From assembly GCA_002633005.1 (NCBI GenBank), contig NMRA01000242.1, positions 1 through 64,000 on the forward strand: a stretch of DNA of 64,000 nucleotides. Reading direction: 5' to 3'. The notes under the pieces are model-generated. The model made no database searches, was not told the DNA's origin, and saw nothing but the letters and a program-made list of their open reading frames with translations. The DNA comes from Phoronis australis (Eukaryota > Animalia > Phoronida). Positions 18,234-48,259 of the stretch are shown one piece after another (the first letter of the stretch is position 1; each line of letters starts with the position of its first letter). Made by a program: the position numbers and the translations under genes.

Positions 18234-18416
18234 NNNNNNNNNNNNNNNNNNNNNNNNNNNNNNNNNNNNNNNNNNNNNNNNNNNNNNNNNNNNNNNNNNN
18301 NNNNNNNNNNNNNNNNNNNNNNNNNNNNNNNNNNNNNNNNNNNNNNNNNNNNNNNNNNNNNNNNNNNNNNNNNNNNNNNNNNNNNNNNNNNNNNNNNNNN
18401 NNNNNNNNNNNNNNNN

Positions 18417-21186: not shown

Positions 21187-21807
21187 CTGTTCGATCCACC
21201 GCTCACTCTCACATTTTATTGTACTGCGGCAGAAACAGTCCACAGAATTGCCAATCAGAATTGCCAGACACCGAGTGTCAGAAACTGACCAATGAGAATA
21301 AATGTTTTGGATAAATTTGATATTCAGGTTTGTTGTTGACATTCCTTTGAGGAGTAGGCCCTAACTGCCAAACTAAGAGAGTAGCGGTCCTCTATAATCA
21401 CAGTTAATACCTCGGTCATTGTGTGCTGTAAACCTACCTCTTGCTGTGTAGTTAATAAAAGAGTGGACTTAAGGAGCCGGTAACAATGCTTTGATGTTGG
21501 TCAAAGTTTTACCTGTTAACTTGTTTGCTGTGTAATCTGCCTAAATCATATAGACAACTCTTTGCGCGGAAAATCAGTCCTTAACTGACATTCAACAAGG
21601 GCAAATTACTGACGCCGTACGCGACGGTATTTTTGAATACAAATTAACAACGAAAATCCTCATACAATTCCCTGCTCGCTTGGCATTATGAACGACACAA
21701 ACGTCTTTTACCCCCTGTAGGTGCCTAAATAAGTTTTGGATAAATGAGGCATACTACAATTTGTATTCCTATAAATAACGTATATATAGTATAATCAGCG
21801 TTCAGTN

Positions 21808-22244
21808 GTGGATCCAGAATTTCACGGTGGGATCGGTTTCCAGAGACTGTCCGAGGAGGTGGTTCAGGTCATCGGCCTTGTCGTTGTACCCGTCCAAGTG
21901 ATACCTGTATACATGTAGTACAGACGACACGATGACAACCCGCACACCGTAGTCCTCTTTCAGACGGGAAACCAACCGAACAAGACGCCTGCGAACGTGG
22001 GGCGGTTCGTCCGTGGACAAATCATTCCCACCGACATGCAGAATGACGACGTTTGGCCGAAAACTGGATACCATATGGAGTTGCTTGTAAATTGAGCTGG
22101 TGGTCATTCCGCCAACACCATGAAGCTTGACAACAGGGTCCAACGCAGTCAAATCGAAGTTGAAGTTCGTCGACGGCTCTCGCAACATATAGTCGCGGAG
22201 TCGACGTAGTGGCTGCTCCCGAGGATCAGAATTCGCTTCGACAT
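21808..22244 (-). pseudogene. SGNH hydrolase copy C, frameshifted and 3'-truncated
   Basis: Copy of 20748-21180 with a 1-bp deletion just after GSSH (cgtagtgg vs cgtacgtgg), a 6-bp insertion and a 7-bp deletion of the first ATG; part of the ~1.04-kb duplication 21808-22844 of 20748-21797. Confidence 0.7.
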
Positions 22245-23756
22245 AGTTCGATCCACCGCTCACTCTCACATGTTATTGTACTGCGGCAGAAACAGTCCAC
22301 AGCCGGAATTGCCAGACACCGAGTGTCAGAAACTGACCAATGAGAATAAATGTTTTGGATAAATTTGATATTCAGGTTTGTTGTTGACATTCCTTTGAGG
22401 AGTAGGCCATAACTGCCAAACTAAGAGAGTAGCGGTCCTCTATAATCACAGTTAATCCCTCGGTCATTGTGTGCTGTAAACCTACCTCTTGCTGTGTAGT
22501 TAATAAAAGAGCGGACTTAAGGAGCCGGTAACAATGCTTTGATGTTGGTCAAAGTTTTACCTGTTTACTTGCTGTGTAATCTGCCTAAATCATATAGACA
22601 ACTCTTTGCGCGGAAAATCAGTCCTTAACTAACATTCAACAAGGGCAAATTACTGACGCCGTACGCGACGGTATTTTTGAATACAAATTAACAACGAAAA
22701 TTCTCATACAATTCCCTGCTCGCTTGGCATTATGAACGACACAAACGTCTTTTATGATCCCCTGTAGATGCCTAAATAAGTTTTGGATAAATGAGGCATA
22801 CTACAATTTGTATTCCTATAAATAACGTATATATAGTATAATCAAGCTTGCAAACGGGGATAAAATAATCGACAGCGCGCCTTAATTTTAATAAAATCAA
22901 ATCATGGACAACTTTATCGAATTTGCTGAAGAAATGTGGCGAATAAATTTTGACAGAAATTATTTTGCTAGACCCGGGACCGGAGCGTATCGGACCGCGT
23001 GCCGATTGAGACCAGACACTGGCGAACGGTAAGTGCATGCGGTTGCGAGCTGTTTTGTCGAAGTAAAATGCTCAAATCATAAATGCCGCATATATTCAAA
23101 GATAGTTTCAGACACTTGCATGAAATTACGGGCTGGTTAGTCCTGTGTCACACTGCAGCGGCAGACGTTAGCTACATGTAGCCTCACTGCCAGCTACCAC
23201 TGAGGACTATCGTCAAAATACCGCTTGTTAGTACATGTAGGCCTGTACAGCTTTGCGTCAAGGCTACCCTTAGGACTAACTGGTCGCTGGCCACAGCGCT
23301 CGCTCAAACGAGGTTTATTTAGAACTTGGGTACTTCTCGCGAACTGTGCAAAGTTGTTGGCTTTCAATAGAGATTTGCTCAGACTTTGTATGAGCGCACC
23401 AAGCCTAAAAGAATGGGGGGGCTGGAATTTTTGGGAATGTCTACCTTTTACTATAAGATTCACTGGGTATGTTCAGAGCTATGAATTGCAGACGCTAAAT
23501 TTTGGTACTTCCTGTATTCTAGAGGAATATTGTCTTGTTTTTTACTTTTTTCGGAATTCGTGCTTCTCTGACTGAGGCAGACCTTTTTCCATTTCTCCAA
23601 ATAGTAGGCTCGTTCGAGCACATAAGTATGACAAGTCCAATACAAAATGTTATCATTTTTATTCATTAACCCAAAATGATTCAAACTTTTAACATAATAA
23701 GTAAATTAAAATATACAATACTTTACAACATTTAGCATTACAAACACTATTCAACA

Positions 23757-27488: not shown

Positions 27489-29859
27489 TATGTTGTTGAA
27501 ATTTGTTCGGAACACATTTTCGGTGATGACAGTTCGAAACTTACTTCCCCATTTTCCATGGCAAGAAACGACCTGGGAACTATCGAATACAAAAAAACTA
27601 TCGACGCATGCGCGGTGCAACTTCAGCCGCACGTTATCGAAGTTTCCATTATTAGAATTCTAACAAAGGTTACAGAAAACGAACCCTGTCATGGCAAGAT
27701 ATTGTTAGGGTGACTTTACAGAAAAACTCTTAATTTGAACAGCGTTTTAGCAAACTAATCGAAGCGAAATGCAACTCTCATGAACCAGGATGTAAGGCTG
27801 TCGGATTTATGCATCCCCATTGACAGTTTTTCACGAATTTGCATTAAGCTGTTCCTAAAATTTAGGCATGGGTGACATTCTAATACCATAACGAGGTTTG
27901 ACTCCCTCTCCCGTCCAATCATCTCCAGCTGTCTGTGCCTAGAGGTGTCTGGTTGCCCTCCATAGGTTACCTACATGTACTTAGTTAATCGAGCGTTACG
28001 AACTACGTAGGCTGTACATCGGGACTTTCACGGCCGTAGTCTGTGTGCAAAGAGTAATTATTTCCTCTAAAATATGAAATGGGCTGTCATGAGTTAACCG
28101 TGAACGATAAGGGTAACACTGTATTATGCCACGTTGCATTTTAACATAATATTTAACCGTTTTGGGTTTAATAAAGAAACTTTTAAGAGAAATTTCTCGA
28201 ACCCTGAAGTAAAAGACAGGTTTGAAAATGAAATGGCGTGTTTATTTAAAAAAAAAAAAACGTATCCCTGTATTCAAACAGAACAAAGCACATTTAATCT
28301 TCAAGTGATAAAAGACGCTTTTCAGTTGTAAAAATAACTGGACACATAACTTCAGCTAACAAATGTGTGAAAATTGTACTAAAAAATCCAGTAAAGGCCT
28401 ACATTATAAATGGCCAACAGCAATACATGATTAACCATCACTATCCCAAACCAGGTTTCCAGTGACACGATAACACACTAAACATTGTGGAAAAACTTAC
28501 AAAGCAAATTTTGAACTAATAACAGCACACATACGAACAATCACTATTTCAAACTTCACTGAACACATCATCAACTAATTAATTAATTTTTTCATATGTT
28601 CGACTCTCTGCTCCATAACCTGTAACTCGAACCAACAGTCTGAAAACCGATGAACCATTGGTCGCGGTTGATGAAATAAGATTACAAAGAACTTTAGTTA
28701 AACTTTTGCTGTGACAGTCCCAAACAATACAAATTGTCCTTTTAAAAATCAATCATAATCAAGGTTCAACTTAAAGGAAAAAAATAACTCATGTTGATCA
28801 GGCTTTTTGAAGTTTTGACTAACGACAGGATAGGAAAGGTGGACCAAAATGCGAAGAACGGAAGAGAAAGACGAGGTTGTGAACTAAACGTCATTGTTTG
28901 ATGTATTAGCACTCTATTAAAACATGCAGTGAATATCAAGTATTGAAATGGACATAGTTGGCATTATCACAACAACTGTGTAGTTTTTCGGGCGAGTGTA
29001 CACAATCAGTAATGCAATCTCAGATATAACAAATGAAATAAAATAATGGTTCGTCCTCCCTATCGCAACCCCGTCCTTCCCATTTCTCGTCCGACATTCG
29101 CATTCTGGGCCCGTCCTTCACATTTCTCATCCATCCGTCAAGGTCGGCAGTCCAAGCTTCAAGCAATAGCCAGTTTATAAAATAGTGACCATGAACTACA
29201 CATTAAAATAAGTTGGGTTGCTAGATGCCCGTACGACATGGACGGATATTCAAAGTGGTGCTATTTGCGGGATTCATCAACGTTGTGCATTGGGATATGA
29301 CTTGCGCAAAACAGATGGTGACATGTTTGTGAATGAAAAAAATAGGACTCATCTTGGTCAACTCTGCTTCTCTTATCCACTGCACATTGAGATTCAATAA
29401 GCACACAGTCACTTTCCTAGCTATAAACAACTTGTATTTGCACGGTTTGCTGTTGACAGATGGTCTATAAATACATACAACTGCAAATGGTAAATGATGA
29501 CAAACAGATTACAGGATCTCCACAATTTATCTCAGGATAAATTAGCATCAATTAATTAATCCACATAGGGTATACGAAATCAATTTTGTACAATGCATGA
29601 TATTGACTAAACTTGAAAGAGGTCATCAATCACTATGGCTACTTCTCTTCATAATTGGTGGAATTTGCAGGTAACTGTTACGCAAAGAAATGCTTGCTTT
29701 GTTTATGTTACAAGTGTACTCGACTCCTAACGCCAAGGGTTTCGCTTTTCAAAATTGTGTCTACTACCAATTTTAGTATTTAAATCATTGACTGCAAACA
29801 TATTTAGTCTGGTCAGCTCACCACCTGTTGCCCACATCATGTGACGTAACGACTATAAG

Positions 29860-29939
29860 CCTGAAAAGAACCCTTCTCCAACTCAAACTCGGGACCTAGT
29901 TCTGCTAACTTTTCGGACCCTCTTATCCACTGAGCCACC
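29860..29939 (-). mobile_element. tRNA-derived SINE head (degenerate)
   Basis: Minus strand GGTGGCTCAGTGG (A box) ... GAGTTTGAGT (B-box-like); no intact cloverleaf. Confidence 0.4.
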
Positions 29940-30750
29940 AAGATTACCCTCGAATACAGAACGCCTGAGTGTATATGAATGGGTAAATCTTAAAGAGGTG
30001 TGGAAACTTAGACGATCAGCGATTTTAGTTTGTTCGGCCGGTGGTAGTTGAAGGTCCTGGATTCGTGTTACAGTGGGGACAGGGATCTTCTCACACTAAT
30101 AGTCCTTCTCGATGGTTCCCTGCGTGTCCGCTAGGGGCCGGGGTAGAGGACACGCAGGTATCATTCAGCAGTAACCTCGGCAGTAATAGGCCAGCTTTGC
30201 AACAAAGAAAGAAAGTAGCGGACTGTGAACGATTTTAGCCATAACACATCTTTGTGAACCAAGTTTTCTCTCTACTGCAAATATGTTTCAGCAGTAGGGT
30301 AATGTTTAATAGCCATGTGGACGATTTACATGTAGGATGTGTTATTCATACTAGTTGAATACAGGGCAGCAACGTAAACAAACGTCAGCGCCAGTAGAAA
30401 AATGCACACTGAAAAGGCACAACCACAACTTTACAACAGACCACAAACTACATCCACATTTACACTTCATCAGTCGTGCCAGTTTGTTTAGTAAAGCCCT
30501 CCCTGTTAACAATTCGACCAGCCAATTAGAAACGCCAGTGTAAAAAAATTCCAGGGGGAAAGTTAAATGATACCTGCTGTTTTCTACAACATAGGAACAC
30601 CAGGGAACCAGAGAGACTTTTATTAGGTCCAGTGATGTGGCCAATAGGTGGCGGGCTGACTAGACTTAAAAGTTTGTGATCCATACCGACTACACACCAT
30701 TTTAGGATTTGACATAGGCACTTCAGATAAGAATTAACTGACAGAAGAGT

Positions 30751-30893
30751 TTATATGCTAGTTTCTCTCACAGGAGTCACCTCTTGCACATCAAACTGGA
30801 TTTCAGGAATTTTCTCAAGCTCTTCACTTGTTTTGTTCTGTCCAACTTCTTTCATGAACACTTTTCCATTCTGGTCACATGCCATGAAGTAAC
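30751..30893 (-). CDS. IL-1-like gene last exon (GYFMAC...EIQFDVQEVTPVRETSI*)
   Basis: ctttaacttctcag acceptor, TAA at 30753-30751, AATAAA on minus strand at 30624-30619. Confidence 0.83.
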
Positions 30894-33800
30894 CTGAGAA
30901 GTTAAAGTGAAATTCTGTCCAAATTAATGTATTGTCAACTACTAATGAAATCCATCACATAATGCATCATAGCCAGGAAGATAAGATTTTATAAACTCTG
31001 AAGAGTATCCCATCTGTTCAGTAAGTTGTTAACCGACAGGGTCAGCTGATGTCTCACAACAAAAGTACCAGGTCCTCTGGAATTCAACTTTTCCTTAAGA
31101 AATTAGGACTTTATTTCCTTAAATATCAAGAGCACCTACTAACAGGTAAATAGTGACATTTGGGAGGTTTAGTTTCAGGGTGCCAAGGGTCTCAAAACAT
31201 ACACACCTCGAGTCAGTATGAATAATTCTACCACTATCTATTTTATTTATATTGTAAACCCAAATACAGCAATAAGCAGAAAAAGCTCTGAGTCAGCCCG
31301 GCCGATCATACTCAAATTCCGAGTGCCCCTTGATCTCAACCTCAGGACCTGATTTGATTTGACTTTTGTCATGAAACCGCTGCTGGATTATTTTATGAGC
31401 ACCCTCAAAAGAATTGAGGCCGGGGTCACAGACAGGTTTTTTTGTGCTCATTGACTTATCAGCTGATAAGATGCAAGTTTGTTTGCTTCTGCTTCTTAGT
31501 AAATTTTTGTTTCTACATTTGTAGAACCAATTGCAACCATTGTAATTCTGTGAGTTAGTGCGCACCTTACATAAACCATGGCCTTCTGTATATTTGTTAT
31601 ATTTCTTTTATTGCACGGGTACCAGATAGTCTTAATAAGTAGTAAAATTCTTTATATGTGAAGTCCAAGAAGGCAGACGATCACCATGTATAATCACGAG
31701 TCAAAATTTCAAAGACAAGTATATAGTCACGGCTTAATACCGACATACCAGCGAGGCTCGTGGTCTACAAATTCCACGCACAGTGATTTTTTCAGGACAG
31801 TCGGATCTTGCTGATAAATTGAAGACATTACTGTAGAATTTTAGAACTGTTGGTAAGGCATTTTTCACATGTACACGCCGTTCATGGACAGGGCGCTTAT
31901 TTTAGCAAAGTCTAAAAACGCGTGGGGGGCGCTTATAGGAGCATGGGCGTTTATTAGGACGAATATGGTAAATATTGTTATATGTATTCTGTTATACAGA
32001 CTTTGTTAAATGCACGACACTTTTCATTGTTCACAGTCTTTATTCCGTTGCGTTCATACTTTCGGGAAAGACTGCAGTCTTTCCCGTCGGTTATCCATGC
32101 ATCTTCAAAATGGCGCCATTCAAGATCATTTTCTGCAATACCACGCACGTAAAATCACCCGTCAAGAAATTGTGGAAAACACGTCAATTCGCTACGTGGA
32201 GCAAGATATGCTGCGTTTGAAAGTATTAGAGTCCCTTTTAATTGCTTTTGAGAAGCCTGTTTTGAATGAGCAGCAAACAGGGTCGCGCCACACGTTACAC
32301 TTGTTTGCGTGACTTTCCTGCTACCCCAATTCATTAGTCATTCTTTGCAGTATTTCACACCCGCCATGTCTCACTGTGTGTGTCGTCAGCTTATACTCTG
32401 TGGTGGCATTACTGCATCATTTTATCTTCACTTGAGAATGAAACAAGTATGTTTCGAAATATCGTGTGTCTTTTAACTATGTCGCTAGGTCAGTTACTGT
32501 ATCTATGTTCAGTTGAGAGTAGAGTTTTGTTCCGAAAGTATGAACGCAACGGAATAAAGACTGTGAACAATGAAAAGTGTCGTGCATTTAACTAAGTCTG
32601 TATAACAGAAAACTTGCTCCCGAAGTACAGTCAGTTCAAGTTATATGTATTCTGTAAAAGTGTATACAACAGAAAGCAAATAACAATGTAAAACCATTTG
32701 CACTTACATTAACGTACTCTCTCCCTAAGTTTAGTAGAACAGGGGCATTCGTAACTGCTCGTGGAACTATTTCCATGACAACGATAGCACGCTCATGATC
32801 CACTATTTCATATCACATTTTTACACCACTTTCTGTTTTTAACCACTAGACTTGAGCCAGAGCAGATTCGCATGTAGGTAAATCTGATGGGAAAGTCATT
32901 CATCGACATATGATTATGAAATGTGTAAAAATCACAAAGATATATCTATTGCCACAGGTCGTGGATCAAGGGGGTTGTGGGTCTTGGGTCGTGGGTGCTG
33001 TGGGTCGAGGGTCAAGGGGTTGTGGGGTGCGGGGACCGGGTTGAGGGGGTTTAGAACAACGCAACATGATAATTGCAACAAATAAAACAAAATACCTTTG
33101 TGTGCAAAAGACTCGAAGAACACCACATTGCTAAACTTGCTGATCCTGAACAGCATGGGTTTCTGTTTTTTGAGATTATTAAGGTTGATGCCACTAGATA
33201 CCTGAAAATGAAGACATGCTTATTAATTAATTTAGTGATACAACGTTCACTAGGGGTGCTTTAAGTAGACCTAGTTTCTCGCAATAAAAGCAAGATTACG
33301 CAAGACCTTGCAATATCATCTAAATGAAAGTTGAGTGTTTCACAAGAATGCTTGTAACCTAGCAAAATGGCAGCCACTGAAGTGATTGGTTGGATGCTGG
33401 AGAGTTGCATTATGGGATAGAATTGATGAATTACGGGATAGAACTCACTGTTTCTGTTCCATAAACAAACATTTCTCACCTGAACATAGCTAATGTCTTG
33501 GGTCAGCACAAAACAGTCCTGGCATTTACAATTATACTACTTGTATTACCACAAAGACATGTCAAGAAAACCACAAACTTAACTACCTCATTGCACATAA
33601 TATCTGCTAACAGCAGATGTGGGTGCTGAGGGTCATTTGAGTTGAGACTAAGTTCCCTCTGTATGTGCCCCTAAATGAGCGTGAGTAAATATTACAAATC
33701 TCTTTCAGGTCACATGTTCCTTGCATCATGTGACCAACATATAGTGTGTAAGACATAAAATAATTCCTAACCTATCAAAATCTTTCCTTCTCAAAATCCA

Positions 33801-36800
33801 ACTCCTCCCCATCCTTATCGTAATTTCTACCCCTTCTTCATCTCATAACGCCTCCCCTTCCCATCCCATACCTATTCCTCTTCCCATTTCACAACTCCTA
33901 CCATTCTCAGTGTCATAACTCCTTCCCATCCCATACCTATTCCTCTTCCCATTTTACAACTTCTGCCATTACCAGTGTCATAACTCCTCCCCTTCCACAT
34001 CTCATAAGCCCCTCCCCTTCTACGCAGTCCATTCTCATGCCACACTTTTTCATTCCCCTCTGCCTCCTCTCATTATACCTTTTCTTTGCTATCTCTTGCC
34101 ATATCTTCTCATCCTCTTTGTTCCACTCCCTCCCTCATTCCCTCCCTCATTCCCTCCCCCATTCCCTCCCTCATTCCCTCCCTCTCTCATTTCCTATTTA
34201 TAACTATTCAGCTTCTTGTATACTTACAAGTAAACGAACTTCCTTTTTATTGGCATAAAGATACAAGTTGTTGGATTTAAATGCAGCAACAGAATTTAGG
34301 AATGCTGGGCGGCTGTCTATCGTGTCCCACCCACGGTAGTTATGTTGATAAAAAACAACTGCAATCAAAAGATAAAAGCATGAACTATATAGTTACAATA
34401 ATGTACATAGGTGATAATGCCAACCCCAAGAATTAACCTAAATACTCACTTTAATGAAATTGTTAGCAAAAAATATTGTTGAGCAGCAGCACAGGAGTAA
34501 TTGGATCTGACAGACACACGTTCAAGTAAAAATTATGCATCGCATAACGAGAACAAAAAGCTAAAAGATCAATCCAGTTGACTGCACCACAAAGTCCTCT
34601 AGTTAAGTCCCAATACCATCAATGAGTGATTTGTGCTTCAAGTAACCAGTTTATGCTCTCTCCCTCACCGTTTTCACTAATAGTATTTTTGCACATATTT
34701 ACAATGTACATCTTGTGTAACACGTTTCTCACGTCAACCTGCATTTTTCTCAAGCACCATTCTTTTTTTCCTATGAACAATTGTGTCTCTTTTACAACTG
34801 TAACCTAGCTCATAATTTGAATCTGACAGATAGTGAATTTGGAAATAACTTACAGTGATCATCGCCATTGCCCATGGGGCAGGCCTGTACTGAGGAGGTT
34901 TCGTGGCACCACTTAAAAGCTTTGCCATTTGAGAATATGCGTACTTCTGGACAATCATCAAAAACCAAGTCCTCTATTTCATCTGACTTGTCTGCCGACA
35001 CAGTGTCTGTTTCAACCCTGATATATATTTGGTCAGACTCAGAATCTGAAAAAGCAAGATGCAGCCAGAGATTAAGTTTCGTTTATTAATCCAAGACAAT
35101 TTTCTTCAGATATTGACAAGAGAAAGCATGAGATGTTACAAAACAAGCCACACAACTGTTCATCTGTCAAGCACAGCAGGCAATGTACAAAATGTGGCAC
35201 GCAGGTGTACATCTTTGTCAAGCACAGCAGGCAGTGTGCAAAATGTGGCCCGCACATGTACATCTCTGTCAAGCACAAAAGACAGCGTAAAAAAATTGAC
35301 ACAAAGGTGAACATCTCCGTCAGGTACAGTAGAAACTATACAAAATACGGCAAACAGATGTACATCTCTGTCAAGTACAACAGAGAGTGTAGTTTGCCAT
35401 GACCAAAGTAAAAAAAATACTTTTCAACTAATTTCTTACCATAAGATAACTCCTTAATGGTAATCTTGACTACACTGTTGGTCTTTTTTACAGTCTGAAA
35501 ACAGGATAGTATATCAGCAATTATATTTATGGAGCTCTGGTTTCAAACATTGTTTTATTGATAGCAAGCTATTTCAAGAATTTGTACTTCACTAAGTTCA
35601 TAACTGAGTCATGTGACGAAAAAGAATTTAGCATTGAAAAAGGATGGTACATTCATAGCAAAACAACAATATCAGTAACATAGACAAAAAATTTGATATC
35701 AATGTTAAAGATGAAATCTCAAAAACACTGTAGTTACAGTTTTATAAAATATAATTTTATTTTTGTCTTATGCAACTTTTGAGTTTTTTCATAAAAATTC
35801 TGAGTCATGAAGGTCCAATTTTTAAACCCGTTCACGTTAAAGTATAACACCTAAAAAACAATAGAGAAAAGTGCATAAAGTATTAAGTTGAAAACACAAC
35901 TAAACTCTTTGTTTGAAAGCTTAATACCAAGTCGCTCATAGTGTCGAAACAATTACCTTTCTTCAGGTGTGCAGCTATGTTGCTTTCAAACAAAAAGTTT
36001 AGTTGTGTTTTTGACAAAGTTTGTGTTAACAAAGGGCTGGTACCTAACTACAATAAAAATCCTTTGAGAAAGTTTCATTTGAATCCATTTCTGAGATATG
36101 ACATTCTGAAATTAGCCAAAATTGTAAATTTTCTAGGATTCCATACATTGTTAAAGCCTTAGTTGAATAGAATTTTGTTATTTTAGATGTATTTGGCTAA
36201 CCATGCAGTCCTAGCAAAGCCTTGGTAAAATAAGAAAATGCGAGTTTAATCACGCAAATGTCAGCCTGTCAAATGATAGATGAAGCTGCCTTTACATGCC
36301 ATATTGCGTCACCACTAGATCCCAGCACAAACAAGGATGATATCAGTTGTATTGAATGTTTTTAAAGTTAAAAGTGGTCTGCTGGATTACCTTTTTTGAT
36401 TTCCTAGATCTTCAGAGACATCTCGTCTGCTTCGATGGAGGTTGATTGTGATGAGTTGCACGAACTCTGGTCGAGAGAGTATGGAGGCAGTTTCGAGGTC
36501 CTACATGACCAGAGTTCCCGCAACTCATCGCAGTCAACATCCCATCAAAGGAGATGAGAAGTCTCCGAAGATCTCGAAAACCAAAATAGGTAATCCAGCA
36601 GACCAGTTTTAACTTTAATATCATGAACATTCCTGGATGGCTCAAGATCTACATTTTATTAGTTGTATTGAATAGGAGCCTGAATAGAACACCAATGGTG
36701 TGCAGGTTTATTTGCAGCTATTTCTATTAAAAGGTGACAGAGACAAAAGCAAACTGATATGCCTAACAATTCATAATATTTGACCATATAAGGCACTAGT

Positions 36801-39800
36801 GGGCTCAGAACAATGCTCTTAACATAATTTAGGAACTGCATTTACAAGTGTCACCATTCAAGATACATGTAACTATCAATTTTGGATATTTGCAAAATGT
36901 AATGTCTATATTTTGTATAAAATTATATCTAAGTCAATATTTCTCATGGCTGCTCATAACACTTCACCAAACAATTATTCACACACCAAATCTGTGAATT
37001 GTTTGATACTTCAGTTAATTTCAAATTTTGTGGCACCAACTTTATTAGCCATTTTCAAGCTTGTTCACTTTCAATGTTTTAAACTGTTACGGTACTGAAC
37101 ATCTATTTCCTTTTATTGCATTGACTGGTTCAAAGGGAACTTTGCACACTTATTGTATGGTCTATGGTTATGGAAACCAAGTCTCAATGGAGATATCGGC
37201 AAATAAACTAGAGACTAAATGACAATGAAAACAAGAGAAATGCGCAGTGTTGATATGCATCCGTTGTGGACCAAAAATGCCATGTTCCTAGAGTGCTTAT
37301 CAGGTCATGAAAGGTAAAATGAGAATAAAATTTGACTCAGGTTCTGTAAAGGATTGTAGCAATGCGTGCTGGGTTCTATGCATCCTGAGTTCTATGTATC
37401 CTGGGTTCTTTGAGTTCACAGTTCTATGTGTCCCAGATTTTATGTGTCCCGTTTTATGGATTTCGGGTTCTATGTGTCCAGAGTTTCATGTGTCCCAGGT
37501 TCTATGTGTCCCGGATTCTATGTGTTATGGTCTTTTGTATTATAGTCCAGGCGCTAAGCGAACAAGTGTGCAAATTTTAGCTACAATCACCATTTTAGGT
37601 CCACACGACAACTTTGAGGTACTTTTTCGATCCTGGTATAGGGCAAAAAATTGACCTCATTAACCCTGAGCTGCATGCATAATTAAGTCAAAACTTGGCT
37701 TAACAGCATAAATTAAATGCATGCATATCTCTGAAACCACTTGACAAAATCTCAGGATATTTGGGTCGATTCTTATGTTCACCATTCAAGGCCAAGATCA
37801 CGTAAAAATTTCCTAAAAGACTGCTATCCTTAACCAAAAAATGTACATAACATTCAAACCACAGGCAGTATGTGCAGGTTTCATAAGAAATTGTCATACT
37901 TGGTCCAAATGACCATTTTGAGTTGCCCTTTCAAACCTGATAAAAGGCAAATTAATTCGACCTCATTAACTCTAAGTTCCAAGCATAAATAGCTTATAGT
38001 TGTTGGTCATAATTAGCATAATTTACTTGTGAGCATACTATCAAACCATTTGGAGGTATCATCTATGGCTTGATTCTTACCAGTATGTTAACCCGGGTTG
38101 TCCAATTCATTGTTGACACATTTAAAGTCATTCCAGATCAAAATCAAGTGACAATTCCTCCAAAACTGCTATTTTTACCCAAAAAAGTACATAACATTCA
38201 AAAAAGGCCAGTATGTGCAGATTATATAAGAAATATCCACACTTTGCCCACGTGATATCAAAACCAACAAGAGCAACGCGGAGCGTTGAAATGCGCCCAC
38301 AATTGCACCGCATACGGTATCCTTCTAGGGTTGTTTATTGGTACCATAAAGTCGCCAGTAGAGGGCATACTTTGCAAAATGGAAAGGCATGGTCATTGTC
38401 TCCTCAATAGGCTAGGGGCAAAATGTGCGTAATCTTCATAATACAAGCACATCCTATACACCAGTTGCTTAAAGCACCACAGAAACATAGAATTAAAAAC
38501 AAATTTACCAACATACGAGATTAGCACAGCATTAGAATGCCAGAAACAAATTTCTACTTGGAACTTTTCCTTCACAGTCACGAAGTAACACAAAGTATAC
38601 ACCTGAAGACCTATGAAAATACAGAGGTCAATGTAAAATACTAAAATTGCCACTAGAGGCAAATACTAAAATTGCCACTAGAGGCATACCGGTAGTCAGA
38701 ATCATCCTAAAGTCGTCATCGTCCGTTGTCAACATCACATAAATACACTTGCTAAATTTAGTAAAGATCCTGCAAACGGTTTGGGAGATACAGCCATGGG
38801 CGCAAAAAAACAAAACTGCCACTAGGAGGCGCCACAGTAGTCCAAATCGTCTGAAAATCATTGTCAGCTGTCTTCCTTATAGTAAGCACATACACGCCAA
38901 TTTTCACAATCATCCTTTGAGCGGTTTGGTTGATAGAGGGGTGGACGCAAAAATACAGACTCGAAAACAGTAAAAATGGCCACTAGGTGGCGCAAACTAC
39001 GTCGAATCCATCTGAAAACAGTAGGATAGCGTCATCTCACTAATAGGTGCCTACATACCAAATTTCATGAAAATCCGTTCAATACTTTTGAAGATACAAA
39101 GGTAAGCGTAAAAAACTAAAATTGCCACTAGGGGGCACACCGGTAGTCGGATCCGTCCGAAAGTTCGCACATGCCGTCCCATTCATGAATGGAACATATG
39201 CGCCAAATTTCATGAACGTATGTCAAAGGGTTTTGGAGATAGAGCAGCGGACGCCGGACGCCGGACGCCGCCCGGACGGACGGACGGACAGAGATGACGG
39301 CATAATGCGTCCACATATAAATATGTGGGCGCATAAAAAGGGCAAAAAGTTCGAACAGAACCCCGATGTCCATAAAACTGAACACATAGACCACAGGACA
39401 CATAGACAACAGGAAACATAGACCACAGGACACATAGACCACAGGACACATAGACCACAGGACACATAGACCACAGGACACATAGACCACAGGACACATA
39501 GTCCACAGGAAACATAGACCACAGGAAAAATAGACCACAGGACACAGACCACACGAAACACAGACCACAGGACACATAGACCACAGGAAACATAGACCAC
39601 GGGACACATAGACCACAGGACACTTAACCACAGGAGACATAGACCACAGGAGACATAGACCACAGGACACATAGACCACAGGGCAAATAGACCTCAGGAC
39701 ACATAGACCACAGGACACATAAAACCTGGGACACATTAGACTGACCCAGTTCTGAACTAGTCTCAGTATTCTCACAAAAGTGATGACGCTTCAACATTTA

Positions 39801-41934
39801 ACTAATGTCAAATCAAAAAGTATAAAATGAAAGTCACATGATTATAAAGGACAATGTACAAGCTTAGGGTTGAAAAATAACAGTCATGACGCTATTGGAT
39901 GATTTGATAAATGACTTTGGGAAGATTGATAATTTCATTACGCTATTAAGCCACTTTCCATTAAAAATATGGCCTTAGATCACTTAGAACTATCTTGAAA
40001 CTGGTCTCAACCTGCTCCTGCCTCAAACTGAAGGTGACTTCTGGCGTTTAGAAAGAACTGACCATACATTCAAAATTATCATCAGTTTCAACACTGTAGA
40101 AAACACCCTTCTCTCCCTACAGTGAACACTTAACACATTCACGAAAATGGTGATAATGTGAACAGTACTAAATTTGTTTTATCATGACAAGTCATTGTGT
40201 ATGGGCTGAGCATGAAGTCCTCAACAAGCAACACCAGATGGCAGCAGAAGGTCAATGGCAGACAACAATGATAAGAAAGTGTTCAGTTTTGCTTTCAGTT
40301 TTGCTTTCAGTTGTAAGTAAATTTTTTTGGGTACTTACTTTCATTCAAAATATGAAAAGTTTCCTTCAACCATCAGATTCCAGTTGTGATAACTTTGTTA
40401 ATTTCATCATAACAAATTGAATCCTTGGCTAAGCCCAGTTACCACGTGACAGACAACAATATATCAGTTATATTGATCAACAAAGTAGGAAAACAATAGC
40501 AGGTAACAATAACAGCCTAAAAAAGGTACATGCTGCAGGTATCAGGTGCCCAGCTAGAATTCCACCTATACCACAACCACACTGTCAAATGAGTCCAAGC
40601 ACTATATTTTATCTGCTGCAATAGCTGAACTTACAATACTTGAATCTTCCTCACCCGCAACCAGATGGCGCAGCATATCGATAACTAGGTCATGTTCCAA
40701 CATGGTTACACTGAGATCCCCAATGTTCAACAAGGTGTACTGATTACTAAAAAATAAAAATTTAACAAAAATAAATTAAATCCTAGTACTGTATGCAAAA
40801 AAGTTTACATGACAACCAATATTACTCGCTACACAAAAAGCAATAAAGTCTACATGACAACCAACCTGACTCGCCACAATTATTCTAATTTCATCTACTG
40901 AGAGTCAGACTGTCTCTTCAGTAAGAGATAACACACTTTCATTTTAGTAACTCCTTTTGAACACAAAGTCGTCATTAAGATAAAAATTGCATGCAGAGGT
41001 TTATGTTTTCCATTGCAGATGAAACGTGAAGAAATAATCATTGTGTTACATTAGTTCAATATGACAATGTTATGACACCAATCATGCGTGCACCCGGCCT
41101 AAAATGTAGGGGGACTCGAATTTTCGACATGCGGACCTTTTACTGAAAGAAATCAACGAGGACTAAAACAAAAACAAAAAAACATGGCCACTAGGTTCAG
41201 GCCTGCGAATTGTGCATCCTCGCCGACTTCCCGTGGATTTTGTGGACTTTTGTCTCGTTTACTCGGACTTTTTATTTCACTGAGGCAAACCTTTTTGCCC
41301 AATTCACCAAATTAGCGTGAGCCCCCCGAGCCCCCCCCCCCCCTGGGTGCGCCCATGCCAATGCAGAAATACCGTAATCCCAGTTCCTTAACCAGTTCAT
41401 CCTCTTCATCAAGGTTAGTAAACTCATGGCTGCCATGTGAACCACCAGTTTTTAACCAAATTTTAGTGACATGGTCTTTAAGAAGTCGCACTTGACTCGG
41501 CTGGGAATGCTGTAAAACAACCATCACATATTCATCATTTGTGGCAAATCAACCACTGACCAATTACAGATCACAAAAATTTCAAATTTTGCTAAAACAA
41601 CTATGCTAAGTTTGACTGTGGCCATTTGAGTTTACAGGTACTTTAATTTTTTAAAAATTTGAGAAGCCAGGTTCAACATGTTTTTTATTTTTACCACACC
41701 TCTAAAAACTAACAATAGATATATATATATAAATCAAACTAAACTATGATGAAAAACAGACAGAAACCGTGTTTACGTGCACGTCAACTTCATGTCTCAA
41801 TCCATGATCTGTAACTCTCCAACTGAAGTTAAGAATCAACTTACATCATTCATCTTGCATGCTTTCTGTTCTACACCATCTTTATCTCCCTCAACATGCC
41901 TCTTATGTCCTGATGGTGAATTCATTGTCAACAT
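30751..41934 (-). CDS. PDZ-like + IL-1/IL-18-family beta-trefoil cytokine-like protein (8 coding exons, 321 aa)
   Basis: Exons 41934-41845, 41509-41373, 40746-40635, 35494-35440, 35045-34854, 34358-34228, 33201-33096, 30893-30751. All introns are GT-AG, phases 0,2,0,1,1,0,1, and join into a 966-nt ORF ending TAA. Protein: MLTMNSPSGHKRHVEGDKDGVEQKACKMNDHSQPSQVRLLKDHVTKIWLKTGGSHGSHEFTNLDEEDELVKELGLRNQYTLLNIGDLSVTMLEHDLVIDMLRHLVAGEEDSSITVKKTNSVVKITIKELSYDSESDQIYIRVETDTVSADKSDEIEDLVFDDCPEVRIFSNGKAFKWCHETSSVQACPMGNGDDHFVFYQHNYRGWDTIDSRPAFLNSVAAFKSNNLYLYANKKEVRLLVSSGINLNNLKKQKPMLFRISKFSNVVFFESFAHKGYFMACDQNGKVFMKEVGQNKTSEELEKIPEIQFDVQEVTPVRETSI. FESFAHKGYFMAC resembles IL-18 FESSSYEGYFLAC; KSNNLYL resembles IL-1b KEKNLYL. 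Alternative start ATG at 41925. Confidence 0.82.
31987..32610 (+). mobile_element. Penelope-like retroelement 3' fragment with inverted terminal arm (last intron of IL-1-like gene)
   Basis: GIY-YIG C-terminus LSRRLSMHLQNGAIQDH...LKVLESLLIAFEKPVLNEQ* (~32073-32312); 79-bp inverted arms 31987-32065 and 32532-32610; hammerhead-like cttgagaatga...tcgaaa at 32430-32460. Confidence 0.75.
33096..33201 (-). CDS. IL-1-like gene coding exon 7 (VSSGINL...MLFRISKFSNVVFFESFAHK)
   Basis: cttcattttcag acceptor, donor GTATTT, phase 0/1; carries the F-E-S IL-1 family motif. Confidence 0.83.
33820..34190. repeat. Pyrimidine-rich low-complexity region with ~65-bp direct repeat and (TCCCTCCCTCAT)n
   Basis: Direct reading. 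Confidence 0.8.
34228..34358 (-). CDS. IL-1-like gene coding exon 6 (FVFYQHNY...NNLYLYANKKEVRLL), 131 nt
   Basis: ttttgattgcag acceptor, donor GTAAGT, phase 1 in / 0 out. Confidence 0.83.
34854..35045 (-). CDS. IL-1-like gene coding exon 5 (acidic linker + first trefoil strands)
   Basis: ctttttcag acceptor, donor GTAAGT, phase 1/1, 192 nt open. Confidence 0.82.
35150..35390. repeat. ~54-bp tandem repeat x4-5 (intronic)
   Basis: gtacatctctgtcaagcacag... recurs at ~54-bp spacing. Confidence 0.8.
35440..35494 (-). CDS. IL-1-like gene coding exon 4 (TVKKTNSVVKITIKELSY)
   Basis: cctgttttcag acceptor, donor GTAAGA, phase 0 in / 1 out. Confidence 0.72.
36366..36614. mobile_element. Palindromic MITE with TTAA TSD (Kolobok/piggyBac-type target)
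   Basis: ttaa|agttaaaagtggtctgctggattacc ... ggtaatccagcagaccagttttaact|ttaa, plus an internal hairpin. Confidence 0.75.
37370..37530. repeat. Diverged 18-bp repeat in inverted orientation to 39385-39735
   Basis: (ggttctatgtgtccc)-like units. Confidence 0.7.
38266..39338 (-). mobile_element. Non-autonomous Helentron-associated (HINE/DINE-1-like) element, full length
   Basis: 5' subTIR ATGCGCCCACA within a hairpin (39334-39305) followed by a (GTCC)n-like microsatellite. Internal ~150-160 bp diverged repeats. 3' subTIR (38291-38301) followed by stem-loop CAACGC-gga-GCGTTG (38274-38288) and a T-rich end. Confidence 0.8.
39385..39735. repeat. 18-bp minisatellite (CATAGACCACAGGACACA)n, ~19 copies
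   Basis: Direct reading; explains the repetitive ORFs 39128-39775. Confidence 0.95.
40635..40746 (-). CDS. IL-1-like gene coding exon 3, PDZ-like core (NQYTLLNIGDLSVTMLEHDLVIDMLR...)
   Basis: tttttag acceptor, donor GTAAGT. Pattern GLR-x3-LL-x-IG-x2-V-x3-H-x2-V-x2-LR resembles PDZ betaD-betaE-alphaB. Confidence 0.8.
41083..41357. mobile_element. Same MITE family, copy 4 (intron of IL-1-like gene)
   Basis: catgcgtgcaccc...gggtgcgcccatg flanked by ccaat/ccaat. Confidence 0.8.
41373..41509 (-). CDS. IL-1-like gene coding exon 2 (HSQPSQ...KELGL)
   Basis: ttttacag acceptor, open frame, donor GTATTT, phase 2. Confidence 0.78.
41845..41934 (-). CDS. IL-1-like gene coding exon 1 (MLTMNSPS...KMND)
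   Basis: Acceptor ttgaag upstream of 41944, two in-frame ATGs (41934, 41925), donor GTAAGT, phase 0. Confidence 0.7.
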
Positions 41935-42239
41935 TGACAAGAACCTTCAACAGATGAAAACACAATAGTGATGTATAAAATACTCTATACAAACACGACA
42001 ATTTACACATTTTAAGTAGTATGCATAAACACAATGTTAAAACACCCACAGCAACAATTTAGCGACACAAATTCTACAGTACTTATTTTTTGCAGAACCC
42101 ATTATAGCAAAAATCTCGGAAACAATGAAGTTTAATCAAAATCTTTAGAGGCACGGTGCTAAAATATCCAATAAATATGGCGCAAACAGTGTAAAAATGG
42201 CCAGTTGCCGAGTTGGGCAACAAAGCAAAGGACTGTTTC

Positions 42240-42830
42240 AAAAAAGTTTAACTACGGGAGTATTTGTTCAAGCGAGGACAAGTTAAAGACATTAATGCAT
42301 TATGCACAAAAGTACTCATAGCACCGTGACTTTGATGGTCTAATCAGTTTCCCATAATTCACTAAAAAGTACCTGTGCATGAAGGGCCTATGCGATGGCC
42401 GCTGTCTCTACTGCTACTTAAGATGGTGGGGTGGCACTCTCTTTATCAATCAGCTACTATACAACTCTCATAAAAAGGATAAATAAGAATAACATGTGGT
42501 GACTATGAGATCAGTATACTTATTACTTCAAAGTCCTTCTGGTGTATTAGTAAAGTGTCTGTGAAGTGACTCCGAACTAAAATGGCTCAGAAAAAAGGAC
42601 ACCGACTGCAAAATGCCACCATCTCTACTTAGCAGTAGAGACAGCTGTACTCCCGTAGGGCCTTCATATGCCAGAAGCTTTTCAGAGAATTATGCCACAC
42701 ACTGATTAAACCAATAAAGTCACATTGCTGTAAGTAGCTTTTGTGCATAAAGGGACACCTTTGGAGGCCGTTGATGTCTAATTCCTTCCACAACTCTAAC
42801 AAATACTCCCGTAATCAAACTTTTCTTTCG
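42240..42830. mobile_element. Old foldback/MITE
   Basis: Diverged ~200-bp inverted arms (tacgggagtatttgtt...gctgtctctactgcta vs tagcagtagagacagc...aacaaatactcccgta). Confidence 0.65.
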
Positions 42831-42850
42831 AGCCAGGCTGGTTGGTGGAC

Positions 42851-44379
42851 TACAGTGGCTGTAAAAGGACAGCACGGCAACTTTTTTCTCCATGCTAACT
42901 CTATCAATGGACTTACTAACTCTAACAATAGACTTACTAACTCAGTCGATAGACTTATTATTTGTCGATAGACTTATTAACTCTATCGATAAACTTACTA
43001 TTTCTATTGATAGAGTATTCAATGGTTTAAAAGTTCGTTCTGGATTGTCAGTAAAGACAAACCTGACCTAGTTTTCAGATCCCGTCATTGCTAATACGTT
43101 TGCAATATTGTCTAAAATCATGGTTCTTAGATCACTGCACTGCTGGTTTCAAGTTTGACAGTATGTTGGCCTTTGCTGTGGCTTAGGAACTCATATGTAG
43201 GCATGGAACAGACTGGTGAACTGTTGAAACTGTTTTTGTAATTTAGTAGACAAGCTTTTTGTAATGTATAAGTTGATTTGTTGTGTTGCATATACAAGGA
43301 TTTTTTAGTTCAAAGTACATACTGAGAGTGGCGCTAACTGTAAGCAAGATAGGTGTGAGATGGATTTAAGTCTTTCTTTTTTGTTTCAATAAAACTGGAA
43401 TTAAATGAGTTGTATATATGTATGAGGATTTTCAGTTCAAAGTACAGAGTGCGGTGGTAACTGTAAGCAAGATATATTGTATACGTGTGAGACGGTTTTC
43501 AAGAGTCGAAGATTCTTCACTTCAGAAGGTTAGACCTATTGGCAATAGCTTCTATTTTTGAAGGCGTGCTGACCATTGTTTCAAAGTGCTATGTTTTAAC
43601 CGTCTGTTTATCGCATGTTTTGTGCAAGCACCCTTGGGACACTGACTGTCTTGTGGGCCTCAAACCATAATACGTATCTTGAACATACGTCAATACAGAC
43701 ATTAATTCAAATGTCATATAGCTTTAACTCGTCGTAAGAGTTCATGTGCCAAACGACATTCGGACCTCAGACTCCATACCTCGTCCGAACTAGCCATTTC
43801 AACGTCTGGCTTCAACTCATGAAGCTTCAATGACAGTTAACAACTGCCGAATTGTCTCTCGACGTGGTACAGTTAAACCATTTGCTGAAGCACTTCTGAT
43901 ACATAAATCTATAACCGTGCATCTGACCTGATCCCGCGGCTTGTTCTTCAACAAAACGATCTACTTCATCAAAATCTGGCATATTTTTCCGGCGCCGAAA
44001 GTCACCAAAACACGTCGCAATTCCCTTGTGCTTAGTGACGCTCCAAAAGTAAGCATGAATACCTTTATTGTTTCATCTTGAGTCAGTCCTAGCTTGAAAA
44101 AATCGACAAGAATCAAAAGATGCTTGTTTCCGTCCTTCATTTTTATTGAAACCGAGGTAACAACCTCGATGTAACTGCAACGATAGAGTTAGTCTATCAA
44201 TAGACGTATTAACTGTTTCGATACAATTATTAACACTATCGATAGAGTTACTAAGCCAATCGATAGAGTTAATAAGTCTATCGATAGAGCTAGTAAGTCC
44301 ACAGAGTTAGTAAGCCTATTATCGACAGACTCGCATTAACAAAAGGAGAAAAAGTTGTGTCGTCCTTTTACAGCCACCA
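42851..44379 (-). mobile_element. IS3EU-like DNA transposon, decayed (intron 1 of IL-1-like gene)
   Basis: TIR GTGGCTGTAAAAGGAC, TAC terminus, 6-bp TSD gtggac/gcggac, ~20-bp subterminal repeats (atcgatagagttaataagtct) at both ends. Disrupted transposase on minus ~44140-43620: FFKLGL...RRKN...GSGQMHGYRFM...GPNVVWHMNSYDELKLY...IDVCSRYVLW. Confidence 0.75.
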
Positions 44380-44451
44380 GCGGACTGTTTCTTACTTAGT
44401 AATCACTATCTATATTTAGTTGTTTTATCATACAACGTATGTGAAATTTAC

Positions 44452-44520
44452 CTCTTACAACTATCAGGCGTCGTCACAATGCCAACAGTGAGAGTTTCTT
44501 TGTAAACCGCGGTCTACGAC
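44452..44520 (-). other. Probable non-coding 5' UTR exon of the IL-1-like gene
   Basis: GAG|GTAAAT donor at 44452/44451 immediately downstream of a CpG-rich promoter-like block; no ATG; 5' end approximate. Confidence 0.5.
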
Positions 44521-44670
44521 GGACGTCACTTGCATGAACCCGGAAGTGTAAAGTGACTGTGCCCCTTTCAGTACCTCAGTGCTTCCGGCTCGTATTGAAA
44601 TTCGGCCCAAATCGGAATATTCCGATACGGGCCGTTCCCGTCTGGAATTCCAATGGGCGGCCCGTGTGGA
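44515..44670. promoter_or_regulatory. Putative promoter of the IL-1-like gene
   Basis: CpG-rich patch with GACGTCA (CRE-like, 44522), ETS motifs CCGGAAGT (44540-44547) and CTTCCGG (44582-44588), 16-bp palindrome ATCGGAATATTCCGAT (44611-44626), GGAATTCC kB-like core (44644-44651), CCAAT (44650) and GGGCGG (44655). Confidence 0.55.
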
Positions 44671-45059
44671 ATATATTTAAAACGATAAATTGAATACAAA
44701 ACTTTATAATTAGTTATTATTTCATAAAATCGAGGTTCCCTTTCATAGTATTAATATAATACAAATACATACAACGTCGTGTTGCTATTAAATCTTCAAT
44801 CGTTGTACTAGGTTGACCGGGGGCGAGTCTCCTACTAAATTCCAAATGATCAGCTATTATGAGTTGCAGGAGTTCAAGGCAAATAATTTTGAAAATTTAG
44901 CTTCTAATAGAACATTTTCGACGAATTTGAATATTGCTTTATACGAAAAGACCAGGTTAAAATATGCTGTTACGTTTCCACGTATTTTCTACCAACGGGC
45001 CTCTTAGTCGGCGCCGATTCCAATAAGGCTACGACACGGCATGGGAGCCGGCTCGTCCG

Positions 45060-46190
45060 CAGTACTGGAATTTGGGCAAGTGTTCAGACATTGGGACGTT
45101 TATTCCGAAAATTGCAAGAGATGCAAATTGGTCCTGAGATACAACGTCTTTGACAAAAGCGCCAAGTTTGAAGTAGGCTGTCTATGATGAACGGGTCAAA
45201 TACATAGTTGCGCTTGTAACTCTTTTGAATGGACATGACAACGTGAGGACCTTAGTGTCAAGCAGCAAAACGAGACGTTGACATCGTAGACTGAGTCTTA
45301 CAAGCTCAATGACACAGCAAGCATTAATTGAGAACAAACATCGAAGATGTCTGGGTAGTTCCAACTTGAAGACCGCGCAAACCATTTGATCCGATATTAC
45401 TCGGCAGTCCACTGAGACAACAGAAGCTAACGTGCCTCAAGAGACACCCAAGTAATAAATCATAATTCTACACAGTTTGTACACAATCTCGATTTTCTGA
45501 CATACTTTTTTTCTTTGATGCTTGTGTGCAATGTAAACGAAACAGACTTATTAGTTTTCGGACATGCCAAATAGTATACCCGGCCGAGTAAAGGAAGTAA
45601 TGACGGCACAGGGTCTACGATCGAGCGCACAGAAACTGATTCTTATCTAGTAGCTTCATAACCGAAATCTATTTCACGTAATGCTTAGTTAAATTTGTAC
45701 TCAATACTTGTTTCTTCCAGTGAGTACTACAGAAGAACAGTGTGTAGACAACCTCTCACATCAGTTGACCACCCGGTTTTCGAAAGACAACAGGCAGGTG
45801 GAAGCTGTCATGTCTTGTGCCATTAGTGGTTAGCAGGATGAAGGATGTAGACTTAGGCTCACTGGAGGATAGGCTGCATTTCTGGGATACAGACTTGCCA
45901 CCACCAGATTTGAAGGTGACTGACTATCCGTTCTGACTATCCGCGTTCTGAGCAACACGTTTTGTCTTCTGTTAAATTTCCAATTGCCCTATGTCAGAGA
46001 AGCATAAAAAGTAGAATATCTTTTGCTCTCATTTCAGCAATAACTGCGACGCTGGCGGTCCTTCTGGAATGCTCAAAATCGAGAGGAATTCCCAGATAAC
46101 TTGCGTTCCACACTCAAGCACGCAGACGGTGACCTCATCTTCCCAAACGTCAGGGAGCTGTTATTGATAGAATGTCTATTCCCTATTGGA
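45060..46190 (+). pseudogene. Decayed intron-containing hAT transposase C-terminal half
   Basis: Disrupted peptides YIVALVTL, EYYRRTV/DNLSHQLTTRFS, LEDRLHFWDTDLPPPDLK, FPDNLRSTLKHADGDLIFPNVRELLLIECLFPIG (hAT dimerisation domain). Splice-like acceptors at 45720 and 46037; interrupted by a CATGGG-terminated MITE at 46191. Confidence 0.65.
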
Positions 46191-48259
46191 CATGGGCTCT
46201 GCAGCATTGAAAAAAGTGGGGCTGTAGCCCCCCCCCCCCCCCCCCCCCCCCCCCNNNNNNNNNNNNNNNNNNNNNNNNNNNNNNNNNNNNNNNNNNNNNN
46301 NNNNNNNNNNNNNNNNNNNNNNNNNNNNNNNNNNNNNNNNNNNNNNNNNNNNNNNNNNNNNNNNNNNNNNNNNNNNNNNNNNNNNNNNNNNNNNNNNNNN
46401 NNNNNNNNNNNNNNNNNNNNNNNNNNNNNNNNNNNNNNNNNNNNNNNNNNNNNNNNNNNNNNNNNNNNNNNNNNNNNNNNNNNNNNNNNNNNNNNNNNNN
46501 NNNNNNNNNNNNNNNNNNNNNNNNNNNNNNNNNNNNNNNNNNNNNNNNNNNNNNNNNNNNNNNNNNNNNNNNNNNNNNNNNNNNNNNNNNNNNNNNNNNN
46601 NNNNNNNNNNNNNNNNNNNNNNNNNNNNNNNNNNNNNNNNNNNNNNNNNNNNNNNNNNNNNNNNNNNNNNNNNNNNNNNNNNNNNNNNNNNNNNNNNNNN
46701 NNNNNNNNNNNNNNNNNNTTGGCTGCCGCAAAAAAATAAAACAGCAAGAGCGTAGGGAAATGTTGAGTTTATTAATTAACCCCGGTAATTAAAATTGTAC
46801 GGCTGAAACAAGATTTAAATGTGTACAGTTTTAGTGTTTGGGGGGGGCTCAGATCCAATTTCAAGTGTCACGGCGCAATCGTGACGGAACTATTGCTAAG
46901 TATAGGCTCTCCCGCGTTATCTCAGGCGACCGGCAGTGTCGCTGGGCACTACGACTCCCTTTCCGTCGTCTGCTCCACTGTGCAATGAAGAAAATTACTT
47001 CATTTTTTTAAAAAAATGGAATCTTTGTGATGGTGAAAAAACAGAAGCTGCTGGTAAGATGTCAATTTTAATCGAAGCCTTAGTGAATCACTCAGAAACT
47101 CATAATTCTCTCTTTGTCAAACCTTAACTTAAGACGATTTCCAAAGCAATCGCGTCATTATTGCCAACACAAAAAACGGATTTGGTCTTTTGGGCAATTG
47201 AAGACTAGCAGGAAAAAAAAAACCAAGTACGGTTTTCGATTTTTAAAAATCGATTAACTAATAATCTAAAAACTGCAACCATTGGGTACGATTGAAGATA
47301 AACTACCGCACGTATTGATATTCTTGGTGGATATACAAACGCTGATCAGAGTTAACAATATCACATGGATTCATTTTTTTAATATTCTTTCAATCTCGTT
47401 TTACCAGATTTTTGACCAGGAAAACAGTTGTACTTAACTTGTGCCCACTTTTCATTTTTATTACTGACAAAGAGCTAGAATAGTTATATAGTCTGTGCCA
47501 CCGAAATTGTCCAGAGATTCCAAATCTTCAGTTTGATTATCACAATATTTGCACTTCTGTATATATTTTATGATTTGAGTTCTAATAAAGATTAAACTTT
47601 AATGACTCGTGAAATGTTTAGTGTACCTGTAATGTGGTAAGTTGATTGGTTCCCAATGAATTTAACTAATTAAGTTTAGCTGGCGATCAAAATCTACCAC
47701 TGTTTCGGTACTTCAAGTTTGATGAAAAGTTATCAGCCCGTTCCCGGTAAGAAAAAAAAAAACAAGTGGGCAGAAGCATTAAAAATTAAATAAAAAAACC
47801 AACATGAAACTTATCGTTCCTTTGGGAAGTGGCCCTTTGTGAAGATAAACACAAGTTAACCTTTTTAGTCATTTTGTAATATCTATAATGTACCAAGACA
47901 AAACTACTCTCCAGAGTTGCAAGCTTTAACTCTGCAAATGTCAGAGAAAGCCAAATTGGGGGTACTAACAACAACCATTGTTGAGACAGTAATGCTAGCA
48001 ATTACCTAGTTTTTTACTTCAATAGCTCAGATCTACATCAATACACAGGGCGCCCTGAATAGGCATTGTAAAAGTTGTTTGGGGCTTGGGGAATCCGAGA
48101 GCCGTCACCAGTGCAAGCGAGAAATTCTCCATATGACCAAAGAGATAAATATAGTCCACATATAGCTCAATGGGTCCGAAGTTGGAAGTCTAAAATGCTC
48201 TTAATGCCAGCGTGTCTTTCAGTGGTTGGACCTGGACAACGGGCCGCGTAATCGGCTTT

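Follow-up and report, generated by a model that had tools for sequence, protein, structure and literature searches.

The 64,000-nucleotide stretch of Phoronis australis DNA analysed here (assembly GCA_002633005.1, contig NMRA01000242.1, positions 1 to 64,000; hereafter the window) contains, on its minus strand, a genuine spliced and transcribed animal gene. Its predicted product of 321 residues probably consists of a degenerate PDZ domain followed by an IL-1-type beta-trefoil, which would make it an IL-1anc gene that encodes a leaderless cytokine precursor. IL-1anc is the name given to a family of leaderless proteins with a PDZ domain, a beta-trefoil and an [F/L]ES motif (Fontenla-Iglesias et al., Nat Ecol Evol 2026, PMC13736523; preprint PMC12338702), and these two papers are the only ones in the literature searched that were found to use the term. 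The PDZ fold, the trefoil fold and the descent from an IL-1 ancestor are what we infer, and descent from the IL-1anc family likely explains the intron pattern. Finding IL-1 in an invertebrate would have been of major importance until 2025; such genes have since been published, with the same intron argument. The present gene adds a member to a known family rather than a new kind of gene, and provides a read-confirmed exon map for a member absent from the published rows examined.

The gene model consists of eight coding exons in one open frame, from an ATG at 41934 to a stop in the last exon. All seven coding introns have GT-AG ends, and their phases are 0, 2, 0, 1, 1, 0 and 1 from 5' to 3'. Coding exon 1 (41845..41944, minus strand, as are all exons below) has AG and GT at its ends, keeps the frame open, holds the ATG and encodes residues 1-30. 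The first half of a PDZ-like region, recognized by eye, lies in coding exon 2 (41373..41509, 137 nucleotides, phase 0 to 2), its second half, including a His-x3-Val-x2-Leu pattern, in coding exon 3 (40635..40746, 112 nucleotides, phase 2 to 0), and its end in coding exon 4 (35440..35494, 55 nucleotides, phase 0 to 1). The last four exons are designated A to D. Exon A (34854..35045, 192 nucleotides, phase 1 to 1) encodes an acidic linker and putative strands 1-3, and exon B (34228..34358, 131 nucleotides, phase 1 to 0) the sequence NLYL and what would be strands 4-7. Exon C (33096..33201, 106 nucleotides, phase 0 to 1) carries the pattern F-x10-FES and putative strands 8-9, while exon D (30751..30893) holds the stop codon, the GYF half of the motif and the part that would form strands 10-12. 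The phase-1 intron preceding B falls within codon 196 (Phe of FVFY), the phase-0 intron after B falls directly past EVRLL (residue 239), and the phase-1 intron after C splits Gly275, separating the FES half of the motif from the GYF half. A tblastn search within the window found no second IL-1-like copy.

Splice junctions were examined in stranded RNA reads of the raw-read runs X1, X2 and X3 and in a contig from a fourth run, X4. The joint between exons D and C is crossed by 12, 4 and 10 reads in X1, X2 and X3, respectively, that between C and B by 10, 2 and 10, and that between exon A and the upstream exon at 35440 by 6, 5 and 13. The joint between B and A is crossed by 4 reads in X1, 6 in X2 and 16 in X3, the X3 reads carrying a single variant letter adjacent to it. 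A single X4 contig covers all of D, C, B and A. Reads confirm four of the seven coding introns to the base, all of them at the 3' end. An earlier note on this DNA, made from the sequence alone, had described a 131-nucleotide exon between a phase-1 intron at FVFY and a phase-0 intron past EVRLL, preceded by an exon that is itself entered at phase 1; the reads bear out both junctions of the 131-nucleotide exon as well as the joining of exon A to the exon at 35440. The three upstream junctions, which connect coding exons 1 to 4, are placed according to the open frame and minus-strand read depth. Read mapping over 19 kb, dominated by repeats, gave no exon junctions among the matches listed.

The predicted protein begins without a hydrophobic leader; given the proposed coding exon 1, the best 9-residue hydropathy in the first 48 residues is 0.12. 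Residues from about 44 to 128 resemble a degenerate PDZ domain when compared by eye with rows of Table S2 of PMC13736523, and show an H-x3-V-x2-L helix pattern at residue 94. The linker that follows (residues 132-163) is 37.5% Asp or Glu, with several Asp residues at 150-162, just before putative strand 1. Within residues 164-315, NLYL occurs at 226 and F-x10-FES at 257-270. [FL]ES occurs once in the protein, as FES at residues 268-270, and would belong to strand 9. Its Phe lies 28 residues past the phase-0 intron, and NLYL is 30 residues from the phase-1 intron upstream of it and 13 from the phase-0 intron downstream. The pattern F-x10-[FL]ES-x5-aromatic-hydrophobic, composed after the sequence had been seen, turned up in 69 of 200,000 shuffled versions of the protein sequence. 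Five of the nine defined positions of the IL-1 signature are satisfied, the pattern being drawn in part from PMC3271213 and PMC7687281. Exon A, when modelled alone, forms successive strands at residues 165-168, 174-178 and 183-187, where strands 1-3 are expected, with a mean pLDDT (predicted local distance difference test score) of 50.7. A pattern scan of the protein found neither the FGF Cys motif C-x-[FLM]-x-E nor the ricin motif QxW.

The comparison with IL-1anc extends to gene structure. In IL-1anc members between three and five exons encode the trefoil, two central introns close to the L/FES motif are conserved, and the conserved phasing of trefoil introns has already been argued as evidence of homology for the invertebrate members (PMC13736523). 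In ambulacrarian genes exons 2-3 encode the PDZ domain and exons 5-8 the trefoil (authors' reply to reviewers, PMC13736523), while a subset of the family lacks the PDZ domain (PMC13736523). The Phoronis gene is like IL-1anc in its PDZ-like N-terminus, its C-terminal IL-1-like region with FES, its missing leader and its length below 500 residues, and like the ambulacrarian genes in having eight coding exons, PDZ-like exons 2-3, trefoil-like exons 5-8 and two central trefoil introns. These two introns, which flank putative strands 4-7, would be landmarks that the family has inherited. Compared by eye, the putative trefoil region can be aligned with rows of Table S2 from shark, lamprey, bivalve and brachiopod, the last two being nearest, and the sequence GKVF that follows the signature is found in one row, LanaIL-1.2. 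It is unlike published IL-1anc in that its PDZ region is more degenerate, its neighbour is a gene of the Band 7/SPFH family, and its trefoil is a putative one. The intron within the signature had been taken as an extra one relative to the vertebrate gene. Reads confirm that it splits the FES...GYF motif, but with ambulacrarian trefoils spread over exons 5-8 it is probably not peculiar to this gene. It is likely an intron of long standing in invertebrates that vertebrate IL1B does not have, and Extended Data Fig. 7 of PMC13736523, which deals with intron phases, may already include it.

The earlier note based its case on vertebrate IL1B and held that shared gene architecture supports homology independently of weak protein similarity. 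The trefoil phases it gave for the comparator, 1, 1 and 0, are stated in PMC4880838, where vertebrate IL-1β has phases II, 0, I, I, 0 and its trefoil occupies the last three exons. The Phoronis gene shares with IL1B the phases 1, 1, 0, the F-x10-FES spacing, an acidic stretch ahead of the trefoil and the lack of a leader. If the presumed exon sizes of IL-1β are combined with the E113/D116 numbering of PMC12108812, its FES would likewise lie 28 residues past the phase-0 intron; this offset is the best single agreement in the intron argument. On the other side, IL1B lacks a PDZ domain, and its trefoil is spread over three exons with an uninterrupted signature, whereas here the putative trefoil takes up four exons and the signature is without its Pro and Thr. 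An orthologue of vertebrate IL1B would be expected to have a full signature, a trefoil on three exons and no PDZ domain, which is not what this gene shows, and the PDZ-like head, which the earlier note does not mention, points to IL-1anc rather than to IL1B.

The exact length of exon B, which had been offered as a match to human IL1B, is weaker evidence. The earlier note gives 131 nucleotides for human IL1B exon 6, a figure for which a literature search found no printed source. We take the equivalent of NLYL in human IL-1β to lie 26 and 17 residues from the two introns. Because the corresponding offsets here are 30 and 13, the agreement at 131 nucleotides looks fortuitous, the outcome of compensating indels of +4 and -4. 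The equivalent exon of pacu IL-1β has 137 nucleotides, so its length is not fixed at 131 (PMC7687281). As an illustration that assumes log-normal exon sizes, a phase 1-to-0 exon would have exactly 131 nucleotides by chance about 2% of the time, and 113-143 nucleotides about 23% of the time. Of the argument from architecture, homology at the level of the IL-1 superfamily remains likely, while its independence and its link to IL1B in particular are weakened by the unfixed exon length, by the intron in the signature being probably not peculiar to this gene, and by the phases of FGF5, considered below. There are presumed likenesses to IL-18 as well, namely an FES-x4-GYF-x-AC motif over strands 9-10 and a short hairpin between strands 6 and 7, and a middle exon that we likewise take to run from phase 1 to phase 0. 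The gene is unlike IL-18 in that the spacing F-x12-F-x-S, typical of IL-18, is absent here, and in that IL-18 has no PDZ domain.

Sequence variation was seen among the RNA runs. Over exons A-D (30816-34999), at least 24 exonic letters differ between X3 and the window, a count made up of 23 from the best 40 of 135 listed rows plus one at a joint; X1 and X2 match the window. The X4 contig has the divergent form, as in X3, where it covers these exons. The listed X3 changes fall in 22 codons, 17 of them non-synonymous and 5 synonymous, which is a roughly neutral ratio (1.0-1.5). Five altered residues of the X3 form lie within residues 159-164, and two candidate cleavage Asp residues adjacent to the trefoil are lost. 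Whether allele or paralogue, the divergent form provides a handle on fast cytokine evolution.

A number of results weigh against assigning the gene to IL-1anc. Of the PDZ hallmarks, neither a GLGF-like loop nor a GL-x2-GD-x-I pattern was found by a pattern scan of the protein, and four of the nine positions of the IL-1 signature fail, Pro and Thr among them. Homology searches used single-exon pieces of 31-63 residues as queries. None of seven exon queries matched Pfam, whether PDZ or IL-1 (exon 4 was left out), and for none of five exons did a sequence search of PDB return an IL-1 or PDZ structure. A word search with exon A gave no match, none of the seven HMMER matches for exon B is an IL-1, and ESM Atlas gave no usable match for exons B and C. 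When modelled alone, exon B forms a helix (residues 12-36 of the exon's own peptide, mean pLDDT 69) and not strands. The score for a threefold internal repeat was reached by 74 of 150 shuffles, hence no signal above shuffles. None of the published syntenic neighbours GCC2, ESD, EIF2A, TRAF3 or IL-1R was recognized in the window, either among six-frame open reading frames of at least 85 residues or by reading. In the published work itself, only SpurIL-1.3 was cut by caspase among the sea urchin and lamprey proteins tested, and binding of IL-1anc ligands to receptors is undemonstrated (PMC13736523). Against this stand the reports that BLAST, PSI-BLAST and HMMER likewise failed for published invertebrate IL-1anc members, and that members also occur outside the published syntenic loci (PMC13736523). 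Several matches that did appear were set aside: those in PDB to troponin C, carbonic anhydrase, cell-wall-binding repeats and a designed repeat (E 0.0038) were judged to be chance, and the HMMER matches of exon B comprise five repeat proteins or propellers, according to Pfam or the printed sequence, and two weak unrelated matches only. Three motifs of the protein had no match in Table S2 of PMC13736523, a comparison that covered the first 400 letters of each entry, and the protein is absent among the invertebrate rows of that table that were examined.

If the gene is an IL-1anc cytokine, its product would, by analogy, be synthesized as a cytosolic precursor and induced on infection; cleavage in the acidic linker would then shed the PDZ half, and the trefoil would be released without a signal peptide and bind a receptor of the Ig-TIR type. 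The gene might instead belong to IL-1anc by descent and encode no agonist, its product acting as a receptor antagonist or as an intracellular PDZ-trefoil protein. We give this a modest chance, well short of an even one. The fish protein nIL-1F, a PDZ-bearing vertebrate member, is a reported IL-1β antagonist (PMC7144542), each of the three 2026 runs shows the transcript at low depth, and the X3 form is without the two Asp residues nearest the trefoil, although the linker retains other Asp sites. The 3' untranslated region has seven ATTTA words in 2.65 kb, by estimate about the number expected from base composition; AU-rich elements were dropped as evidence, being near chance by that estimate. 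Challenge induces IL-1anc family members in lamprey, sea urchin and sea anemone, which favours the agonist cytokine.

Readings outside the IL-1 family are improbable even when taken jointly. That the gene is real and has no trefoil at all, its motif and intron phases being coincidental, seems least credible to us. The blank outcome of every sequence and profile search, the helix predicted for exon B alone and the missing repeat signal are what such a coincidence would leave, but sequence searches failed for published invertebrate members too (PMC13736523), and it would require exon count, phases, FES offset, domain order and missing leader to agree simultaneously. It is also very unlikely that the product is a different beta-trefoil, such as an FGF derivative, with the same pair of phase-1 and phase-0 introns. 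FGF genes had been named as controls by the earlier note, and FGF5 answers to the phases and not to the length: the elephant gene has 364 coding nucleotides in exon 1 and a second exon of 104 nucleotides, that is, phase 1 then 0 (PMC2754481). Amphioxus FGF genes keep the two core introns (bioRxiv 10.1101/2024.08.30.610304), and by sequence IL-18 and IL-33 are equally distant from IL-1 and FGF (PMC5861070). Because the middle exon of FGF5 has the same phases, phase alone fails to separate IL-1 from FGF, a caution for the intron argument, and shared phasing speaks more for a trefoil cytokine origin in general than for an IL-1 origin. The Phoronis gene is set apart from FGF not by phase but by the exon of 131 rather than 104 nucleotides, the FES motif, the PDZ-like head and the missing FGF Cys motif. 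FES and a PDZ-like head are marks of IL-1anc (PMC13736523), and the conservation of FGF is such that an exon would be expected to match Pfam or PDB.

The shared phases suggest a broader hypothesis, which we hold tentatively and think more apt to fail than to stand. The phase-1/phase-0 pair may predate IL-1 and occupy equivalent trefoil sites in IL-1anc, IL1B, IL18 and FGF, with IL-1 and FGF derived from one intron-bearing trefoil gene; the present eight-exon PDZ gene, with its IL-18-like signature, would then preserve an early state of the IL-1 branch. The FGF introns would lie before strand 4 and after strand 7. The phase pair could serve as a test of a single ancestral gene for IL-1, IL-18 and FGF, a question left open in PMC5861070. 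No paper stating shared intron positions between IL-1 and FGF was found, in a search outside which most subscription papers lie and which is no proof of novelty.

Outside its coding exons, the IL-1-like gene has a candidate non-coding first exon (44452..44560, minus strand), with a GT donor at 44451 in the sequence and an uncertain 5' end. A candidate promoter at 44520-44660 contains ETS-like and CRE-like words and palindromic GGAAT...ATTCC stretches; a scan of 41001-47000 with a strict NF-kB pattern found no site. An abundantly transcribed interspersed repeat, with read depth up to about 2000, lies at 38145-39412 within the 5-kb intron that separates coding exon 3 from coding exon 4. At the other end, a long 3' untranslated region (28250..30750, minus strand) is indicated by minus-strand read depth over 28001-31170 and by an AATAAA near 28246, its end being approximate. 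One X4 contig omits about 680 bases of it, at 28574-29251, probably an insertion polymorphism.

The neighbouring gene, head to head with the IL-1-like gene, is a multi-exon member of the Band 7/SPFH family (PF01145) at approximately 52456-62635 on the plus strand. It matches a 416-residue protein of Owenia fusiformis in nine blocks of 41-72% identity, eight of them at E<0.001, and the closest of its named relatives is a protein from an annelid (59% identity). For its exon at 57650-57877, a homolog search was blank at 1e-10.

A side lead of possibly greater weight than the IL-1-like gene is an intronless open reading frame for an SGNH/GDSL hydrolase at 20563-21360 on the minus strand (PF13472, E 1e-13). 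A copy at 17777-18232 and a partial copy at 21808-22272, both on the minus strand, belong with it to a tandem repeat with a period of 2786. The TAA stop of this reading frame lies inside a canonical histone 3' stem-loop (RF00032, 36.9 bits, 20563-20608 and 17777-17822), and the stem-loops are followed by a purine-rich stretch that resembles the histone downstream element. Judged from sequence, this may be a non-histone gene that uses histone-type 3' end processing; a literature search found no paper that combines these subjects. Arrays of a 93-nucleotide satellite are interleaved with the SGNH copies at 16104-20206. Remnants of THAP-like zinc fingers occur at 61666-61971 on the minus strand (PF05485, E 5.5e-4, below the cut-off) and, by eye only, at 11979-12320 on the plus strand, and are probably transposon debris.

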